This document shows positions 1 to 8,945 of a DNA stretch of 8,945 bases, piece after piece. Position 1 is the stretch's first letter, and the number at the start of each line of letters is the position of its first letter. A program made the translations under genes and the position numbers. Origin of the DNA: a virus. Taxonomy: Duplodnaviria > Heunggongvirae > Uroviricota > Caudoviricetes. Under the pieces are notes generated by a model, which worked only from the letters and a program-made list of their open reading frames with translations, did not search any database and was not told where the DNA came from. Location: positions 1 through 8,945 of the IMG/VR virus record IMGVR_UViG_2585427729_000015. One strand, given 5' to 3'.

Positions 1-380
<380 letters not shown>

Positions 381-679
381 TAGACAAAGACACTATCACG
401 CAGTGGATACGAAGTGGACGACTTCAGGCCGCAAAGATAAATCCAGATAAACCTAAAAGCCCATATCGCATTTGCAAGTCAGACTGCATTGCGGCGCTTA
501 AGTCTGTAAGACACAATAGCGCGGTGAATGCGGTTGATGTGCAGGAGGTTAAAGCATGTCAATCAAACTACGCGGTGGCACGTGGCACTGCGATTTCGTC
601 GCGCCAGATGGATCAAGAGTTAGACGCTCACTTAAAATATCGGACAAAAGGCAAGCGCAAGAATTTCACGATCGTCTGA
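381..679 (+). pseudogene. Excisionase / AlpA-like DNA-binding gene, 5'-truncated by the IS insertion; 3' end overlaps the integrase start
   Basis: Frame of track ORF 308-679 translates from 381 as ...TITQWIRSGRLQAAKINPDKPKSPYRICKSDCIAALKS..., resembling the helix-turn-helix of phage Xis/AlpA-type excisionases. No start codon or N-terminal helix remains because the IS terminus abuts at 380. Position immediately upstream of, and co-oriented with, the integrase is the canonical xis-int arrangement. Confidence 0.5.
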
Positions 680-1716
680 AAGCAGAAGCGTGGAGAGTAA
701 AAAATCTCGGGGAATCACCGAAAAAGCTATTCAAGGAAGCCTGCATACGGTGGCTGCGTGAGAAATCGGATAAGAAGTCCATTGATGATGACAAGAGCAT
801 TATATCGTTCTGGATGTTGCACTTCAGAGAAACCATTCTCTCTAACATAACAACAGAAAAAATAATGGAGGCGGTAGACGGGATGGAAAACCGCCGCCAT
901 CGCCTGAACTGGGAGATGAGCCGGGACAGGTGTTTGCGGCTTGGCAAGCCAGTGCCGGAGTATAAACCAAAGCTGGCAAGCAAAGGAACGAAGACGCGGC
1001 ATCTGGCAATACTTCGCGCTATTCTCAATATAGCTGTTGAATGGGGATGGCTTGACAGGGCGCCCAAAATATCAACACCACGCGTTAAGAATGGACGAAT
1101 CAGATGGCTTACAGAGGAGGAATCGAAGCACCTGTTTGCAGAAATTGCTCCTCATTTCTTCCCTGTGGTCATGTTTGCAATCACGACAGGCCTTCGCCGT
1201 TCCAACGTTACAGACCTTGAGTGGTCACAGGTCGATCTGGATAAGAAAATGGCATGGATGCACCCTGATGAAACAAAAGCTGGCAATGCGATCGGAGTTC
1301 CTCTTAACGAAACCGCATGCCAGATATTAAGAAAACAGCAGGGGCTCCATAAGAGATGGGTATTTGTCCACACCAGACCTGCCTACCGAAGCGACGGAAC
1401 AAAAACAGCAGCGGTAAGGAAGATGAGAACCGACAGCAACAAGGCATGGAAGGGAGCGTTAAAGCGGGCGGGCATTAGCAACTTCCGCTTCCATGACCTG
1501 AGGCATACCTGGGCAAGCTGGCTGGTTCAGTCCGGTGTCTCTCTTCTTGCACTTAAAGAGATGGGAGGATGGGAAACTCTCGAAATGGTTCAAAGATACG
1601 CCCACCTTTCAGCCGGGCATCTCACCGAGCACGCGAGCAAAATCGATGCGATTATAAGTCGCAATGGCACAAATACGGCACAAGAGGTGAACGTGGTTTA
1701 CTTAAATGTGAGGTAA
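556..1716 (+). CDS. int: Tyrosine-type site-specific integrase (phage integrase family, P22-like)
   Basis: 386 aa with GGAGG Shine-Dalgarno at 543-547. Catalytic signature residues are visible: box I arginine in TTGLRRSN, HxxR in FRFHDLRHTWASWL, and catalytic tyrosine context EMVQRYAHL. The gene ends 14 bp before a tRNA-Thr 3' fragment (att core). Confidence 0.9.
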   Translation: MSIKLRGGTWHCDFVAPDGSRVRRSLKISDKRQAQEFHDRLKAEAWRVKNLGESPKKLFKEACIRWLREKSDKKSIDDDKSIISFWMLHFRETILSNITTEKIMEAVDGMENRRHRLNWEMSRDRCLRLGKPVPEYKPKLASKGTKTRHLAILRAILNIAVEWGWLDRAPKISTPRVKNGRIRWLTEEESKHLFAEIAPHFFPVVMFAITTGLRRSNVTDLEWSQVDLDKKMAWMHPDETKAGNAIGVPLNETACQILRKQQGLHKRWVFVHTRPAYRSDGTKTAAVRKMRTDSNKAWKGALKRAGISNFRFHDLRHTWASWLVQSGVSLLALKEMGGWETLEMVQRYAHLSAGHLTEHASKIDAIISRNGTNTAQEVNVVYLNVR

Positions 1717-1730
1717 TTTATTGATTTAAA

Positions 1731-1776
1731 TGGTGCCGATAATAGGAGTCGAACCTACGACCTTCGCATTACGAAT
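1731..1776 (-). tRNA. tRNA-Thr(CGT) 3' fragment, 46 nt (anticodon loop to CCA end); att core copy, not an intact tRNA gene
   Basis: Reverse complement of 1731-1776 is ATTCGTAATGCGAAGGTCGTAGGTTCGACTCCTATTATCGGCACCA, identical to my recollection of the 3' 46 nt of E. coli thrW including the CGT anticodon and CCA end. Sequence beyond 1776 does not continue into an anticodon stem, D-arm or acceptor 5' strand. Confidence 0.75.
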
Positions 1777-2523
1777 TATAAGAATCCGCTTCTAATTCAA
1801 AGTATTACCCCATCAACACTGTGCTCACACGTCCCACCACATCAAAACATGTAAAGCCTTGCAAGCCATTGTGAGGCCTTATGTGTCTCAGTTTTGTCCC
1901 ACCTTGTATTATGACTTGCATAGCCAATGAAGATAAACGTGACGACAAACAGCGCAGCAGTCTTCTTTTCTTTCACACTTTCCCCAATCAGCATACATAC
2001 TTTCTACCATAACTGTAGTGAATGTCTGTTATGAGCGAGCAAAAGAGATTCAATTACCGGGGAATTACTCCGACATAAGCTCTCCCAGAAACACCGGAAC
2101 AGCGATTCGCATATTCTCTTCTATACTTTCAGTCTGACCGGCTGGAGATTTCATAGCAAGAAAATGGATGCGCCAAGACCTATGCGGGAAAGAGGCTGAG
2201 GAAATAATTGCCGATAGCACTGTGCCCGCCGAAAAGTTAATCTGGCACGCAATGACGCGCGTCCTTGGGGCATCAGGAATCAGAGAGCCAACTTAACAAC
2301 CCATTATATATTATTTAACAGGACCGTTACATGTACAAAGTTCAATGATTAGTGATTCTGTGACGCCACATACAACCTAAGCCCCTGATATAAAACCAGT
2401 CTATGCAACACCTAAAAATCATATATGATAGGGTGATAAGTCAACGCGCAGTATAAAAATCAAGCTAAAAAATGCTTTCAGCATAGTGAATCTATTTCAC
2501 ACTACATAATTAAGGATGAAAAA

Positions 2524-3369
2524 ATGACTGCACCAGTAATTAGTTTTATCAATATGAAAGGTGGGGTTGGTAAAACAACTTTATGCGTTGGGATTGCTGA
2601 GTTTTTAGCCAACCATATGGGGCGCAAGGTTCTAGTTATCGATATTGATCCTCAATTTAATGCCACTCAGTCCTTAATGGGGCATTATGATCGAGTAGAA
2701 GAATATATGACTGCCCTTCGCCCTAATAATCAAACCATTCGAAAGATTTTTGAGCTTCCAAATTCATTAATGGAAGATGAAAAGAAAGTGACACCAGAAC
2801 AGGTCATTACTAAAGTTTCAGACAATCTTGATATTATCTTAGGTGATATAAACATTATCTTTGATACTAACCAAGAGGGTATTAGAATAAAAATGTTGCG
2901 TAAATTCATCACCGAAAATGACTTAAAAGAAAGTTACGACTATATCTTTATCGATAGCCCCCCAACAATCTCATTATTTACAGATACCGCACTCCTTGCT
3001 TCTGATTATTATCTTACTCCGGTTAAAATTGATCACTACTCGGTGCTTGGAGCAAGCAGTTTAAATAGCGTTATAAGAAATATGCGCACACATCATGAGA
3101 AAGAAATCAAGCAAGTCGGTTACATTTATACAAACACTGATGCTGAAATGACCAATAAAACAAGGGAAATTAAAGAACAATTCGAAAACCATACTCAATT
3201 TACAAATTTTTATTTCTTTGAAAATCAATTAACCTACGTGCGTGATTTAATGGTAGGTTATCAAGGAAATATTCCTTCTTGTTATTCAAAGTCACGCCAA
3301 GATATAGAAAAGATCTGTAACGAATTTATTAACAGAGTGGCTCACTTGGAAGGTAACACAAATGAATAA
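2524..3369 (+). CDS. ParA/MinD/Soj-family P-loop ATPase (deviant Walker A)
   Basis: 281 aa; N-terminal ISFINMKGGVGKTTL matches the deviant Walker A KGGxxK[ST]; VLVIDIDPQFNATQ (A' box) and YIFIDSPP (Walker B) are present. AAGGA Shine-Dalgarno 7 nt upstream of the ATG. Visibly AT-rich, roughly one-third GC by eye. Confidence 0.85.
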   Translation: MTAPVISFINMKGGVGKTTLCVGIAEFLANHMGRKVLVIDIDPQFNATQSLMGHYDRVEEYMTALRPNNQTIRKIFELPNSLMEDEKKVTPEQVITKVSDNLDIILGDINIIFDTNQEGIRIKMLRKFITENDLKESYDYIFIDSPPTISLFTDTALLASDYYLTPVKIDHYSVLGASSLNSVIRNMRTHHEKEIKQVGYIYTNTDAEMTNKTREIKEQFENHTQFTNFYFFENQLTYVRDLMVGYQGNIPSCYSKSRQDIEKICNEFINRVAHLEGNTNE

Positions 3370-3760
3370 ACAATTAATTAAAGCGCTCAATAAAGCTAAC
3401 AATATGCCCATGACCAAAGAAAACTTCTTAGGCTTGGTAATTATGTTGATTCTTTCAAAAGAGGTTTTTAGATCAAATTTTGATGTTAGTAAATTTATTA
3501 ACAAAACCTTCAAAATATCTTTTTTGAATTATGCTGTACGGTCAAGAACTTTGATGTGCGCTAAAATTTGCAAACATATTAATGAATTAAGTGAGAATGA
3601 CATAAAGATGGCTTATACGCATTTCTTAAACAACATTAACACATTAGACATTATTTTTAATGATGCAAATAAAACAAGCCAAAAATCCACATCTAAAAGC
3701 AAGCATGCTATAAGGAATTTAAATATTTGGATTAATGCAAATAAAAAGGAAGAAGAATAA
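3362..3760 (+). CDS. Hypothetical protein (132 aa), translationally coupled to the ParA-like gene
   Basis: Start ATG overlaps the upstream stop by 8 nt; GGAAGG Shine-Dalgarno 8 nt upstream. Lys/Asn-rich AT-rich coding sequence with no recognisable motif. Same strand and composition as its neighbours. Confidence 0.6.
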   Translation: MNKQLIKALNKANNMPMTKENFLGLVIMLILSKEVFRSNFDVSKFINKTFKISFLNYAVRSRTLMCAKICKHINELSENDIKMAYTHFLNNINTLDIIFNDANKTSQKSTSKSKHAIRNLNIWINANKKEEE

Positions 3761-4425
3761 TGCTCACGCAGGATCCCTTCAACATTGGAAGAGATGTAAA
3801 TTATTTTAGAGCGGAGGTGCAAAAGCACCTCAGAACCACTGATGAAATAAACAAATCAGTATCAATATTTAGGCAAATAAGTCTTTGTAATACAATTTTA
3901 AGTCACAATCCTAATCTAAATCACTCTTCTTATATAAAAGGTTTTATATATGATACCTTAAACTCCTTAATTGCCATTATAAAAAAAAGAGAACGGTATC
4001 TCCAACTGAACTTCCGCTCAATGGTGGAGCATGTGGCCAGAATAAGCCTCAATAAGAACTACAATGGTGGGGATTTTGACCAAACTGTACGTCGTAGAGA
4101 CTTTGACTTCTTAAAAGCCCAACAAGTCGATGAAGGCTGGTCTTATTTACATAATGTCTATATCAACGCCTGTTATTATGTTCACTCCTCCCCCCAAGCG
4201 AACCTAAATGTTACATCAACATTTATATCACTTATGGAGGGAGATTGTAATTCAACACAGCATAAAATGGTGAAAAAACTTCATGAGGTAGTATCGGCGC
4301 TGATGAGAATCATTATAAAGTATTATCATCAGCATATCTCAAACATTTTCTTTAGAAACAAAAAGGATTTAGAGAAAATAATGGGAAAAAGCCTTTATTC
4401 ATATTATACCAGCTTAGACAATTAA
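3760..4425 (+). CDS. Hypothetical protein (221 aa), translationally coupled (TAATG overlap); contains a possible HEPN-like Rx4H motif
   Basis: Start ATG shares one nucleotide with the upstream stop (TAATG at 3758-3762); AAGGAAG Shine-Dalgarno upstream. Contains RSMVEH (residues 86-91). No other recognisable domain by eye. Confidence 0.6.
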   Translation: MLTQDPFNIGRDVNYFRAEVQKHLRTTDEINKSVSIFRQISLCNTILSHNPNLNHSSYIKGFIYDTLNSLIAIIKKRERYLQLNFRSMVEHVARISLNKNYNGGDFDQTVRRRDFDFLKAQQVDEGWSYLHNVYINACYYVHSSPQANLNVTSTFISLMEGDCNSTQHKMVKKLHEVVSALMRIIIKYYHQHISNIFFRNKKDLEKIMGKSLYSYYTSLDN

Positions 4426-4462
4426 TTCTCTCATATTCATTGCGTAGAGCATAAATATCTAT

Positions 4463-4958
4463 CTAACCACCTAAAATGCCAGAAAATCTAGTTGTATACC
4501 GGTGCGAAAATATCTCGCGTTTCATCTGCCACTGCTGCTGAATGCCCTGCCCAGCGAAACAGAGTGTTTCCTTCCCGTCTTTTGCGTTGAGGTGCTCCAG
4601 CACGCTCATTAACTTTTCGCTCCCAGGACCCAGCGCGTTATCGTCGAATAGGTTAGGGCATGCTCTGACTGAAGAAGTCCCCCAGCATTACCCCGGCTTT
4701 CTGATATCGGTGTCCGTCTTTCCATATTGCATCCAGACTCCCCGTTGCTACTGCAATGATATCCCGACTGTCCTGTGTCGGGATGAGGAGCTTCACCGAC
4801 GCGTTGTTACAGTAGTACGACTCGTTCAACGCAAAGGGTATCGTGTAAAACCGATGATGACACTGCCGGCAATCAGCACTGACGTCAGCAAACGTGAGAA
4901 AGAACAGATAAGCCGAACGATTTAGGAAATGTTTGAAGAGACTGATATGTGGATGGTT
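4463..4958 (-). pseudogene. umuC-like (Y-family translesion polymerase) 3' remnant, 5'-truncated and frameshifted
   Basis: Minus-strand translation gives ...DSRDIIAVATGSLDAIWKDGHRYQKAGVMLGDFFSQ in one frame, ending at a stop at 4654-4656, then in the +1 frame ...NLFDDNALGPGSEKLMSVLEHLNAKDGKETLCFAGQGIQQQWQMKR...RYTTR... to a stop at 4463-4465. This matches my recollection of the UmuC C-terminal region. There is no in-frame start and the N-terminal roughly 300 codons are absent. Recognisable similarity is clearest for 4463 to about 4870. Confidence 0.55.
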
Positions 4959-5355
4959 TCAGTTTAAACGCCTTGAACCGTCATATTACCTAAGTACAAT
5001 CCGCTGTGACTGGCAATCATTCAATACTTGCACTATCAAAAGTGCATCAGCCAACCGCAGCACGTCTTGCATACGACCTGTCTGCGGTTTCAATCACCTC
5101 TCACCACCAGTCCCATCAATAATAATTAAACAGCGCCTAAACAAAATAAATAACAACAAGTCAACAACCTCGACAGGATGCCGATGGGATGATGAAGAGA
5201 TAAGAAAGAATAACTAGTAAAGCCCTAAAACGTCAGCGTTCAGACGCGTTTTTTACTTAACCGGTAACAAATACGTTGTATCATAGCAACATAAAATGAT
5301 TGTTCTAAATCAGATTAACTCCTCACTTTTGTACAATGTCGCTTACAGGTATACC

Positions 5356-7245
5356 ATGAAATCCGAGACGCTAACTGTCCAACAACTTTTTCAAGACCGC
5401 CGACAATACTGTGTTCCATTCTATCAACGTGCCTATGTATGGACTCAGCGAAACCAATGGTCAGCTCTACTGGAGGATATCCTAGAGAAAGCACAATCCC
5501 GGCTCTCGGGTACAAAACCAACTCCCCATTTCCTTGGTGCAGTTGTACTGGAACCTCAACCAAAAAAAGGATTATTCGGTGTAGATTCCATACATATTAT
5601 TGATGGTCAGCAACGATTGACCACTCTTCAATATGTTCTGGCATCCATCCGATTAGCATTACGTGCAACAGATCTTTCCAACTTAGAGCCTCTCATTTCG
5701 TCTTGCCTGAAAAACTCAAACGAAGACACAATGCGAAATAAAGAAGTAGAGCGCTTCAAACTGTGGCCAACTTTTCGGGATCAAACTCATTTTATTCAAA
5801 GTTTTAATGTTGAAAATATTGACGATATCCGGAATGTATTCTCTGATAGTTTCACGCAGCATGGTACGTTGCGTAAGCATTTTAATCACCCGCCATCACT
5901 AGAAGCATTATGTTTTTTTACTGAAGCCTTTATAAAGTGGATTAAAATAGAAAATCACTCACCACGAGAAAATGCTGTAGCATTAATTGAGGCTGTCTTG
6001 ACGGATCTGAAACTAGTAAGCATATTTCTCGAGGCTGAAGATGACGCTCAAATAATTTTTGAAACATTAAATGGCAGAGGTGCGGAACTTCATGCCACAG
6101 ATCTTATTCGCAATTATATTTTTATGTGCGCTGAACATGAAAATATTAATGCTGTTGAATTATATGAGAATGAGTGGAAGATCTTTGAAGATACGTACTG
6201 GTCAGAAAGACAACGTCGTGGTCGTATTAATAAACCACGCATGGAGTGGCTAGTGCATGCAACATTGCAATCAGAAAGGCAACGTGAAATCGATCTGTCT
6301 CGTCTTTACAATGAGTATCGTGATTATGTAAGTAAGGACTTGCCTTCACAACGAGCAGATCTGCAAGTAAAGCGCCTCAAACAATATGCATCACAATATA
6401 AAGAATTGGTTGGTGGTTTTGGCACAACCCCCATCTCACACTTTGGACATCGCATCGCAGCCTATGATGTGACGACACTTTATCCGCTTGCTTTGTTCAT
6501 TTCGATAGCTAACATCGCCGATGATGAGAAAGCAGCCATGTATAATGATCTTGTCTCCTACGTAGTACGAAGAGCCGTATGTGGCCTGACGCCAAAGAAT
6601 TACAACAATGTATTTATGAATGTATTGCGGCACTTGTCTAAAACAGAAATTTCCAGTGTTGAGTTACGTAATATCCTCAATAGCTTAAATGGCGAAGCCT
6701 CACGTTGGCCTGGGGACTCAGAATTTCTCAACGCTTGCATCAATGCTCCACTTTATCCTGGCAGGCTCGACGCACCGAAAATGCGCTCAATGTTAACGGA
6801 ACTTGAAAGAGAACTTTGTCGCCAAGTGAAGACAGAGAAGCCTGATGTTCCAAATCTTTCTAACCTCGATATCGATCATCTTATGCCTCAAAGTTGGTAT
6901 TCCTGTTGGCCTCTCGAAAATGGTCATATGGTGACAAATTCAGATGCTACGGTATTGAACCAAATTGTTCTGTCTGGAACCGATCTTACCCCAGAACAGC
7001 TACTGGTAAGGAAACGGCAACAAGCGATAACTACGTTGGGAAATCTAACTTTGCTTAACCTTAGCGTAAACCGTTCTGTTCAGAATGCTGTATTTCTGAA
7101 AAAACGTGATGCTCTCATCGTCCACACCAATCTACGACTGAACATTCCACTTATAGTTAAGGATAAATGGGATGAGGATGAAATCCTGGAGCGGGGTAAA
7201 AAGTTGGGGGAAATTGCATTGAAAGTATGGCCAAAACACGATTAA
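5356..7245 (+). CDS. DUF262 (ParB-like NTPase/nuclease) + DUF1524 (HNH-like) protein, GmrSD-family candidate type IV restriction endonuclease
   Basis: N-terminal YCVPFYQRAYVW and IIDGQQRLTTL (DGQQR) are the hallmark of DUF262; C-terminal NLDIDHLMPQSW and LGNLTLLNLSVNRSVQN resemble the DUF1524 His-Me finger. Start placed at the ATG at 5356 (AGG 6 nt upstream); an in-frame ATG at 5296 with no Shine-Dalgarno would add 20 residues. Confidence 0.8.
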   Translation: MKSETLTVQQLFQDRRQYCVPFYQRAYVWTQRNQWSALLEDILEKAQSRLSGTKPTPHFLGAVVLEPQPKKGLFGVDSIHIIDGQQRLTTLQYVLASIRLALRATDLSNLEPLISSCLKNSNEDTMRNKEVERFKLWPTFRDQTHFIQSFNVENIDDIRNVFSDSFTQHGTLRKHFNHPPSLEALCFFTEAFIKWIKIENHSPRENAVALIEAVLTDLKLVSIFLEAEDDAQIIFETLNGRGAELHATDLIRNYIFMCAEHENINAVELYENEWKIFEDTYWSERQRRGRINKPRMEWLVHATLQSERQREIDLSRLYNEYRDYVSKDLPSQRADLQVKRLKQYASQYKELVGGFGTTPISHFGHRIAAYDVTTLYPLALFISIANIADDEKAAMYNDLVSYVVRRAVCGLTPKNYNNVFMNVLRHLSKTEISSVELRNILNSLNGEASRWPGDSEFLNACINAPLYPGRLDAPKMRSMLTELERELCRQVKTEKPDVPNLSNLDIDHLMPQSWYSCWPLENGHMVTNSDATVLNQIVLSGTDLTPEQLLVRKRQQAITTLGNLTLLNLSVNRSVQNAVFLKKRDALIVHTNLRLNIPLIVKDKWDEDEILERGKKLGEIALKVWPKHD

Positions 7246-7265
7246 TGCAATTAATAAAATGATTA

Positions 7266-7293
7266 TAGCGGCCTTACATTAGTAAGGCCGCTA
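7266..7293. terminator. Perfect 12-bp stem / 4-nt loop hairpin; possible intrinsic terminator, orientation unclear
   Basis: TAGCGGCCTTAC-ATTA-GTAAGGCCGCTA at 7266-7293, 21 bp downstream of the GmrSD-like stop. U-rich flank is present on the minus-strand side (complement of AATAAAATGAT), not clearly on the plus side. Confidence 0.4.
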
Positions 7294-7495
7294 CTCACTA
7301 TTAAATCCTTTAATTTGCAATAAGAACAGCAGTGTCAGCCCTAGGTTTCGGACTTTGTACCGCTTATCTTGTCTTCAAAAATCAGCTCGCATCCTGCACA
7401 GCTCAACGCATTACGTTGTAGATCGGTGTTCTGGTCATTTGTTGATACGCGTACATAGCCAATAAGCATGGTAGCGCCCCCTGACAAAAGCAGGA

Positions 7496-7846
7496 ATGAT
7501 GCCATTTGCTCGTTATTTCTGCATTTTCATAAATGTTGGTTTAAGAGCAAGCGGGCAGTACACCGATAATTTGTTATTTACAGGTCCTGATGGTCTTAAG
7601 ATTCAGGTGTTTCGCCGGACGCTCGCAAATTTGACTACTGTCGGTGTAGTAAATTCTGTGCCAGTGACTTTCCCTGTCCCGTTCCCTGTTAATTGCTGGG
7701 GCGTTTTTTCTACCAAATTAACATGGGTTCAGATAACTAACTCATGCGAGTGGGTAAGCAATACAGGATTTACCGCTCAGGTCATGATGAATATTGCTGT
7801 AAATACAAACACCTCAGACGCTATGTTTTTAGCTATAGGATATTAA
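7496..7846 (+). CDS. Tail-fibre C-terminal (variable) segment, probably a silent or truncated alternative distal tail-fibre coding block
   Basis: Frame is open only from 7475; no convincing ribosome-binding site for the ATG at 7496. Stop at 7844-7846 lies 1 nt before the ATG of a tail-fibre-assembly gene, the typical stf-tfa junction. Sequence is Thr/Asn/Val/Pro-rich (VTFPVPFPVN). Confidence 0.45.
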   Translation: MMPFARYFCIFINVGLRASGQYTDNLLFTGPDGLKIQVFRRTLANLTTVGVVNSVPVTFPVPFPVNCWGVFSTKLTWVQITNSCEWVSNTGFTAQVMMNIAVNTNTSDAMFLAIGY

Positions 7847-7847
7847 T

Positions 7848-8288
7848 ATGAATCGTTTTGTGTTCAGTCCATCTGAGTCCCGTTTTTATGCCATCGAGTG
7901 GCAGGCTGATTATGTTGATAATAATTGTTGGCCGCATGATGCCATTAACGTTAGTGACAGCATTTATTATGAGTTTTCCGGCACTCCCCCTACAGGTAAG
8001 CAACTTATAACTTTAAATAACATGCCATCATGGGGTGATATTCCTCCACCTACACGAGAAGAATTAATTGTCACCGCTGATGTCGAGAAGCAAAAAAGAA
8101 TAGATTTAGCCAATGATTACATGAACGGTAAGCAATGGCCTGGTAAAGCAGCTATTGGTCGTCTGAAAGGTGAGGAACTGGCACAATATAATTTGTGGCT
8201 GGATTATCTGGACGCACTGGAGCTGGTCGATACCGCCAGTGCGCCAGATATTGAATGGCCTACGCCTCCGGCAGTTCAGGCCAGATGA
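7848..8288 (+). CDS. Phage tail fibre assembly protein (Tfa/U-like chaperone)
   Basis: 146 aa with the characteristic C-terminal region ...YNLWLDYLDALELVDTASAPDIEWPTPP shared by lambdoid/Mu/P2 tail-fibre assembly proteins. AGGA Shine-Dalgarno 7 nt upstream. Confidence 0.75.
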   Translation: MNRFVFSPSESRFYAIEWQADYVDNNCWPHDAINVSDSIYYEFSGTPPTGKQLITLNNMPSWGDIPPPTREELIVTADVEKQKRIDLANDYMNGKQWPGKAAIGRLKGEELAQYNLWLDYLDALELVDTASAPDIEWPTPPAVQAR

Positions 8289-8862
8289 CATCCGGCGCGG
8301 TGCTCGTATCTGTTGCTGTCACCGCGTCAATGTAATCCAGCACAGTGTTAAGGCTGGTTGTTTCTGCCTGCGTCAGTTTACGTCCGGCCTGCAATTTCAG
8401 CTGAATCAGACTGATTGAATCCATTACAGTATCAATCAGTGACTGGCGCTGTGCTTCTGCTGCATCTACTGCGGCGCTATGCTGTGCTTCGGTATCCGTC
8501 ACCCATTTCTCACCATCCCATTTATCGTATGGCGTTAACGGGGCGATAGTGGTTGTATTATCAGGGTAATCACCCGGAACTGTGATTTCTTTTGATTCTC
8601 CTGTTTCGGTGCTAAAGACGATTTCACCGCGATAGTCTGGCACATATTCCCATGAGTTAAAATCTACAGATCGGCAGATTGCATAACCAGCTTTGTATGT
8701 GACAGGGGCATCTAAACAGGAATATGCAGGGATACCGACACCAACGGCAAGATATTCAGTTGATGTGGAAATATATTCCCGTGTTTCACCATCATAGTTA
8801 TAGACGGTAATATTCCCCGCCTTTGTAGCAATAAACTCGCTATTTAATACAGCGTTATCCAT
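8260..8862 (-). CDS. Phage tail fibre assembly protein (Tfa/U'-like), convergent with the plus-strand tfa
   Basis: 200 aa; ...PYDKWDGEKWVTDTEAQ... and C-terminal ...DAVTATDTSTAPDVIWPELPEA match the Tfa family pattern. GAGGG Shine-Dalgarno upstream; start ATG overlaps the stop of an upstream minus-strand ORF (TAATG). Confidence 0.8.
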   Translation of the reverse strand: MDNAVLNSEFIATKAGNITVYNYDGETREYISTSTEYLAVGVGIPAYSCLDAPVTYKAGYAICRSVDFNSWEYVPDYRGEIVFSTETGESKEITVPGDYPDNTTTIAPLTPYDKWDGEKWVTDTEAQHSAAVDAAEAQRQSLIDTVMDSISLIQLKLQAGRKLTQAETTSLNTVLDYIDAVTATDTSTAPDVIWPELPEA

Positions 8863-8945
8863 TATGCAGCCCTCACGATATAGTTAAATGCAATATTCCG
8901 TGGACGGGTTTCATTTATCCCATATGCTGTTGTTCTCTGATTCCC
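8862..8945 (-). CDS. 3' end of a minus-strand tail-fibre gene (partial; continues beyond the window end)
   Basis: Open frame across the final 27 codons (...GNQRTTAYGINETRPRNIAFNYIVRAA-stop) with its TAA overlapping the ATG of the downstream tfa. Too short for independent confirmation. Confidence 0.4.
   Translation of the reverse strand, partial: GNQRTTAYGINETRPRNIAFNYIVRAA

Follow-up and report, generated by a model that had tools for sequence, protein, structure and literature searches.

The P segment of the e14 prophage of Escherichia coli K-12, with its serine invertase PinE, is reportedly the subject of the work of Plasterk and van de Putte (1985). In an e14-type arrangement one constant fibre N-terminus can be joined to either of two variable C-termini that bind receptors, and a separate Tfa chaperone accompanies each of these. 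The K-12 locus has the layout stfP-tfaP-tfaE-stfE-pinE-mcrA (Kirigo et al. 2025, PMC12529663). The G segment of phage Mu (invertase Gin) and the C segment of P1 (Cin) are built similarly, with a constant Sc, alternative Sv/U and Sv′/U′ genes placed tail-to-tail, inverted 26-bp sites and an adjacent invertase gene whose 5′ end contains the enhancer (P1 annotation). We analysed an 8,945-nt stretch of DNA of a Caudoviricetes virus (positions 1 to 8,945 of IMG/VR record IMGVR_UViG_2585427729_000015, hereafter the window). A locus in its right-hand part is read as an allele of the E. coli e14-type P segment, a Din-family (Hin/Gin/Cin/Pin) site-specific inversion switch, whose invertase gene is truncated and which would occasionally be inverted in trans; a probability of roughly 0.8 is given to this reading as a whole.

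A textbook tail-fibre inversion switch largely explains what an earlier note on this DNA had noticed, namely a candidate invertible segment resembling the Mu G and e14 P segments. The core of that likeness was right: the gene order and the 29-bp overlap of the tfa genes are those of K-12 e14, and pix-type sites are present. The aspect that is not routine is that the invertase has been cut to a stub that retains the enhancer-equivalent interval in ~5% of complete E. coli genomes, and that the orphan segments have nevertheless been inverted.

Anatomy of the segment and its crossover sites

Relatives of the locus were surveyed in 5,426 complete E. coli genomes, in which matches to the window break at three different query positions. 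Four loci are used below. L002 contains an intact pinE next to the segment in the orientation of the window. In L003 that segment is inverted, with pinE on one side and an e14/Mu-like tail module on the other. L001 (strain TUM17668) contains the truncated recombinase of the window beside a DUF262 gene, and L005 (PK8276) has the same flanking proteins as L001.

As shown in Table 1, two alternative fibre C-termini with cognate Tfa genes lie tail-to-tail in the window, a gp53-like C-terminal domain followed by Caudo_TAP on the + strand and a StfE-type end followed by Caudo_TAP on the − strand. Both Tfa proteins cleared the Pfam gathering score for their family over the full domain (91.9 and 109.7 bits; gathering cutoff 22.1). 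The coordinates given in the earlier note from the sequence and its list of open reading frames (ORFs) were correct. The two tfa genes converge and overlap over 29 bp (8260–8288). On the + strand the fibre block stops at 7846, one nucleotide before the tfa ATG at 7848, and on the − strand a TAA (8864–8862) and an ATG (8862–8860) have the A at 8862 in common (TAATG). After a TAG at 7472–7474, the fibre frame of the + strand is open from 7475 onwards. The ORF in this frame is indeed a fibre block, as it carries the gp53-like C-terminal domain, and the remark that it lacks a good ribosome-binding site was fair, only a poorly spaced AGGA abutting the ATG at 7496 being present.

Table 1. Positions of the features of the P-segment locus and of its neighbouring restriction gene in the window
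Feature	Position	Strand	Basis or remark
GmrSD-type (DUF262 + DUF1524) type IV methyl-directed restriction enzyme	5296..7245	+	Pfam GmrSD_N E=7.8e-34, GmrSD_C E=4.4e-20
5′ stub of PinE-type serine invertase gene, ~146 nt	7324..7469	−	Pfam Resolvase PF00239 E=4e-9
Interval homologous to recombinational (Fis) enhancer, pin nt 19-90	7380..7451	−	Retained entire in stub
Pin-proximal ORF, 116 aa, leader + fibre variable C-terminus 'a'	7496..7846	+	Pfam Gp53-like_C PF21882 E=1.3e-7
Pin-proximal 26-bp pix-type crossover site	7524..7549	−	TGCTCTTAAACC AA CATTTATGAAAA read on − strand
In-window part of invertible segment	7538..8945		~1,408 of ~1,825 bp
tfa chaperone 'a' (TfaP-type, 146 aa), cognate to fibre end 'a'	7848..8288	+	Pfam Caudo_TAP PF02413 E=4.8e-26
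tfa chaperone 'b' (TfaE orthologue, 200 aa)	8260..8862	−	Pfam Caudo_TAP PF02413 E=1.5e-31
Last 27 codons of fibre variable C-terminus 'b' (StfE-type), continuing off window	8862..8945	−	Translation ...ETRPRNIAFNYIVRAA*

A Din-family 26-bp pix-type site was found at 7524–7549, where the inversion breakpoints map; the earlier statement that the window holds no hix/gix-like site was mistaken. Scanned with the published dix consensus, the window gave one match, this site (0.17 expected by chance). The central dinucleotide of the site (7536–7537) is the exchange point, flanked by an outer half-site (7524–7535) and an inner half-site (7538–7549), the latter within the segment. The outer half agreed with published pixR and the inner half with the left half of cix, each at 11 of 12 positions (Table 3 of PMC3241671). 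When the window was aligned with L003 by blastn, the strand switched at 7536–7542, and comparison of four junctions showed that the half-sites swap exactly at the central TT/AA between orientations.

The partner site in L001 and L002, TTCTCCCAAACC AA GGTTTTCGAGAG, was identical to published pixL (26/26), as was that of L005; these three loci are 98.5–99% identical. The window ends inside the segment. From the geometry of L001 and the coordinate offset, its partner site was predicted at ~9351–9376 in window numbering, ~410 bp past the window end, as the inverted site TTCTCCCAAACCAAGGTTTTCGAGAG. A generic inverted-repeat search on the extended loci did not detect the crossover sites of the window's allele, because they share only ~7 bp, and breakpoints were instead mapped by pairwise blastn. 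K-12 has a 16-bp repeat; the shorter identity in the window results from its cix-like inner half-site (TGCTCTTAAACC).

The pin-proximal ORF has a short leader, MMPFARYFCIFINVGL, outside the segment, which is 87% identical to the leader of K-12 StfE and is fused across the crossover to variable end 'a'. As for the known alternative pairs with which the earlier note proposed an alignment, arm 'b' matched that of K-12 (Tfa 'b' 87.5% identical to TfaE; end 'b', ...ETRPRNIAFNYIVRAA*, 94% identical to the StfE end), but arm 'a' was a different allele: Tfa 'a' was 55% identical to K-12 TfaP over the C-terminal 105 aa, and end 'a' had no BLASTP match to K-12 StfP.

In the orientation of the window, the StfE-type end 'b' with its TfaE-type chaperone (− strand) would be the ON end, fused to the constant N-terminus past the right end of the window, and the gp53-like end 'a' with its Tfa (+ strand) would adjoin the invertase gene behind the short leader. 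The crossover falls in codons for ...ALENLGL, as in e14, so that either variable end would be in frame with one constant N-terminus. Such in-frame fusions, whose constant part lies outside the window, were seen in the relatives. The ORF of end 'b' runs intact from the constant N-terminus through the crossover in L001 and L002 (289 and 270 aa), and end 'a' is joined to the constant N-terminus in the flipped loci L003 (199 aa) and L005 (WP_089075133.1). The ON fibre genes of L001 (13614–14453) and L002 (13529–14320), both on the − strand, are called by PGAP pseudogenes missing the C-terminus, although the ORF is actually intact; annotation pipelines mishandle the chimeric fibre genes of invertible segments.

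By analogy, the ORF at 7496–7846 would represent the classical silent arrangement, as S′ of Mu, and would be the positional analogue of e14 StfE2. The label of silent copy used in the earlier note fits the classical layout but is questionable in function, since the positionally equivalent StfE2 of e14 is reported to be functional (PMC12529663). A promoter and terminator scan of 7150–8945 identified no promoter for pin or for the pin-proximal ORF, the counts being near shuffle expectation.

An imperfect inverted repeat of 33 nt, with 73% complementarity, extends across the 3′ ends of the two convergent tfa genes (window 8229–8310; L001 12981–13062), and its two strands both encode a conserved Tfa C-terminal motif (SAPDIEWPTPP and TAPDVIWPELP). 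In a search of a phage collection, deposited phages matched only the tfaE-type part (window ~8109–8916; ~90–92% identity to P2-like phages), and no phage in the collection carried the whole segment.

The invertase stub and inversion in E. coli genomes

According to the earlier note, the window contained no recombinase gene and an invertase might lie to the right. In fact the remnant of the invertase lies to the left of the segment, where 7341–7469 (−) encodes a truncated Resolvase N-terminal fragment. This ORF of 42 codons begins MLIGYVRVSTNDQNTDLQRNAL... and is identical to residues 1–41 of K-12 PinE at 40 of 41 positions (97.6%). It ends at a TAG (7341–7343) created by a 1-nt deletion, and keeps the catalytic-serine motif YVRVST but lacks the remainder of the catalytic domain as well as the DNA-binding domain. 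Aligned with intact pinE, the window, L001 and L005 lost homology at one shared junction, ~146 nt into the gene from its ATG (blastn limits of pin homology, 7324/7346). No intact Din-family serine invertase gene adjoins the segment in the window. With the intact invertase gone the locus cannot flip itself, and it is an orphan derivative of the Din family rather than a complete member.

Wild-type invertases of this family require a Fis-bound 65-bp enhancer, natively ~100 bp from the crossover site; the Hin enhancer, for example, is 65 bp long and ~100 bp from hix (PMC3798978). The position of the corresponding interval in the stub was taken from that paper and from the P1 record, in which the Cin enhancer is annotated at cin nt 19–90, a gene to which the stub of the window aligns gap-free. 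The interval lies 85–157 bp from the crossover centre and is identical to K-12 pinE at 69 of 72 positions, to cin at 55 and to gin at 53. By analogy with these systems, the stub may still act as an enhancer in cis.

Beside the features already mentioned (the same layout, TfaE, the leader, the PinE N-terminus, the likeness of the outer half-site to pixR and of the partner site of relatives to pixL, and the crossover codons), the window shares with e14 a type IV restriction gene beyond pin, GmrSD in place of mcrA. It differs from e14 in the invertase cut to 42 codons, the allele of arm 'a' and the cix-like inner half-site, as well as in the length of the segment (~1,825 bp against 1,797 bp in e14) and its place in an island context near thrW (e14 lies at icd). 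With Mu the window shares the 67-bp spacing between crossover and invertase ATG (from the G-segment boundary to the gin ATG in Mu). The core dinucleotide of gix is GA, in contrast to AA/TT in the window; U and U′ of Mu and P1 are 28 bp apart, whereas the tfa genes overlap; their segments are longer (~3 and 4.2 kb), their invertases are intact and the identity over the enhancer interval is only 53–55 of 72 nt. Membership of the Mu G-segment or Shigella B-segment type was rejected on the core dinucleotide and the 97.6% identity of the stub to PinE.

Comparison of L002 with L003 by pairwise blastn showed a clean inversion of a 1,834-bp block, with 7–12 bp shared at the breakpoints. Two pairs of isolates with intact pinE (Z1323PEC0013/Z1323PEC0011 and ZH49/ZH48), each from the same study and with near-equal genome size and locus coordinates, differ in the orientation of the segment, a difference consistent with active switching where the invertase is intact.

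The junction between the DUF262 gene and the truncated pin (window 7180–7535) was present in 288 of the 5,426 genomes (~5%; Δpin genomes). A synthetic flipped junction (DUF262, Δpin, site, then arm 'b') was built and searched; at least 7 genomes contained it at full length, and 4 contained the observed junction. Between L001 and L005, the left flank including Δpin was 100.000% identical over 7,346 bp and the right flank 99.987% identical over 7,570 bp, and the segment was 100% identical over 1,829 bp but inverted. In the IHE3034/UTI89 group, which has a different segment allele, the synthetic flipped junction matched at 100% over its full length in 79 genomes and the observed junction was present in 24. 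Both orientations occur in nature, as seen in the relatives compared, with an intact and with a truncated pin. The suggestion in the earlier note that the switch may be defunct is unlikely, as genomes with the same truncation hold the segment in both orientations with identical flanks. Judged from these alignments, the segment has inverted after the truncation of the invertase at least twice, in two separate allele groups.

A 3,014-bp "circular plasmid" record, pTST3_5 (L010, NZ_CP154410.1), holds nothing but a P-type segment, with its two tfa genes and two fibre ends, and ISKpn26. It was considered as evidence of inversion within a culture and rejected, being a different allele with an insertion sequence; that strain also has a chromosomal Δpin locus, and the two alleles differ. 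Most likely the record is either an excised circle or a bubble that an invertible segment left in the assembly.

Genes beside the segment

The GmrSD-type gene was also detected at full length by PADLOC (mREase_IV, 1437 bits), and a strong terminator-like hairpin (7265–7294) lies between it and the pin junction. Its arrival replaced the 3′ three-quarters of pin. The slot just beyond pin is occupied by GmrSD in the window, by mcrA in K-12 e14, by GIY-YIG and Dcm genes and a type II restriction-modification system in L003, and by retron Ec67 and DUF262 in L001 and L005. This comparison of gene content shows that the position beside pin behaves as a variable defence-cargo slot. In L001, only the baseplate and fibre genes of the prophage are left.

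Further left, a gene for a ParA-family ATPase (2524–3369, +) is followed by two small ORFs (3362–3760 and 3760–4425) with overlapping starts and stops, neither of which belongs to a Pfam or PADLOC family. The three-gene unit (2524–4425) is ~99% conserved in many E. coli genomes, and may be an uncharacterised partition or defence module. The sequence at ~4450–5290 is annotated in the closely related W21 locus as decayed fragments of DUF4113 (UmuC C-terminal) and DinI genes, with a fragment of an SOS-response-associated peptidase gene further left in that locus.

At the left end of the window lie an IS911-like orfA (6–344, −; HTH_Tnp_1) and a tyrosine integrase gene (556–1716, +). In L001 and L002 the tRNA-Thr att repeat is followed by sequence that matches positions 1725–2042; no tRNA was found in the window by ARAGORN. 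The content of 1–2042 suggests tandem integrative elements at the thrW site.

Proposed inversion in trans and its alternatives

Precedent exists for a segment flipped by an invertase encoded elsewhere in the genome, as with Hin and Fin in Salmonella. Din invertases cross-complement: apart from PinE, the enzymes PinQ and PinR encoded by other cryptic prophages also invert the e14 P segment (PMC12529663). In those cases the cognate invertase is present as well. It is absent from the 288 Δpin genomes, so that any action in trans would be obligatory there. We propose the following course, resting on sequence comparison and on analogy with these systems. The cognate invertase gene was truncated after ~146 nt as the GmrSD-type restriction gene took its place, the stub retaining the interval homologous to the Fis-dependent enhancer. 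Two inverted 26-bp pix sites, that at 7524–7549 and its partner ~410 bp past the window end, would exchange strands at their central TT/AA, and the occasional inversions would be catalysed in trans by a Din-family invertase of another prophage. The window segment was probably flipped in this way, and it may still flip in the source strain.

Several points weigh against this proposal. No invertase acting in trans was identified in any Δpin genome, and UTI89-type records matched the pin stub at one place only, with no second pinE-like copy at the sensitivity of megablast. A whole-ORF deletion of pinE leaves the e14 P segment of K-12 locked despite the presence of pinQ and pinR (PMC12529663); either the enhancer matters, or inversion in trans is weak at native expression. 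The stub of L001 and L005 has five substitutions in the enhancer-equivalent interval, yet the segment flipped. The two orientations in Δpin genomes show at least two inversions after truncation, not an ongoing high rate. Finally, the right-hand site and the constant fibre part lie beyond the window end, so that completeness of the switch in this genome is predicted from relatives; an exact-protein lookup of the GmrSD protein did not recover the source contig.

The segment might alternatively have been locked once its invertase was truncated, and would then be a dead switch in a decaying prophage. The reduction of the invertase to 42 codons, the loss of most of the prophage in L001 and the locked K-12 ΔpinE mutant (PMC12529663) agree with such a fossil. 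A single truncation followed by freezing, however, would give one orientation per allele. Both orientations were found behind the same truncation junction, between the 100% identical flanks of L001 and L005 and, at 100% identity, in 79 against 24 genomes of one allele group. This explanation is thus unlikely.

A second alternative is that the host has co-opted the locus as a phage-defence switch resembling the one reported for e14, the 116-aa pin-proximal ORF being made in the orientation of the window and blocking the adsorption of some phage. Such a role would account for the persistence of the segment and the enhancer stub beside a restriction gene, and the locus does lie in the slot for defence cargo, which holds GmrSD in the window, a retron in L001 and mcrA in K-12. 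The leader is conserved in the ORF of the window, and e14 StfE2, with the same leader and a gp53-like end at the same position, is reported to block T2 adsorption after inversion (PMC12529663). That report, however, is one paper based on overexpression and docking; no convincing promoter or ribosome-binding site was found for ORF 7496–7846, and end 'a' is unrelated to StfP by BLASTP, so that the function of StfE2 against T2 is not transferable. We consider a defence role of this kind quite unlikely.

Although several related fibre/tfa cassettes per E. coli genome (median 2, up to 9 places) could act as partners, it is very improbable that the orientations differ through RecA-dependent homologous recombination between inverted repeats or exchange with other prophages, as the sites of the window's allele share only ~7–12 bp, too short for efficient exchange, the exchange falls exactly at the centre of the 26-bp pix sites, and the flanks and segment interior are otherwise identical.

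Returning to inversion in trans, we tentatively suggest a wider possibility for the orphan P segments of the 288 genomes: that the stub persists as a Fis enhancer, that the segments can be flipped by the invertases of other prophages, and that they may even serve the host. If so, control of the switch would lie with any phage, resident or incoming, that brings a Din invertase, and its beneficiary might be the host, for instance by receptor masking as with StfE2, and not a virion. The Δpin genomes constitute a natural experiment on the share of natural P-segment inversion that is due to invertases of other prophages acting in trans, and on whether it is the enhancer within the invertase gene that has to be preserved. 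Both questions were raised by the recent work on e14, and the Δpin genomes give a direct genomic handle on them.

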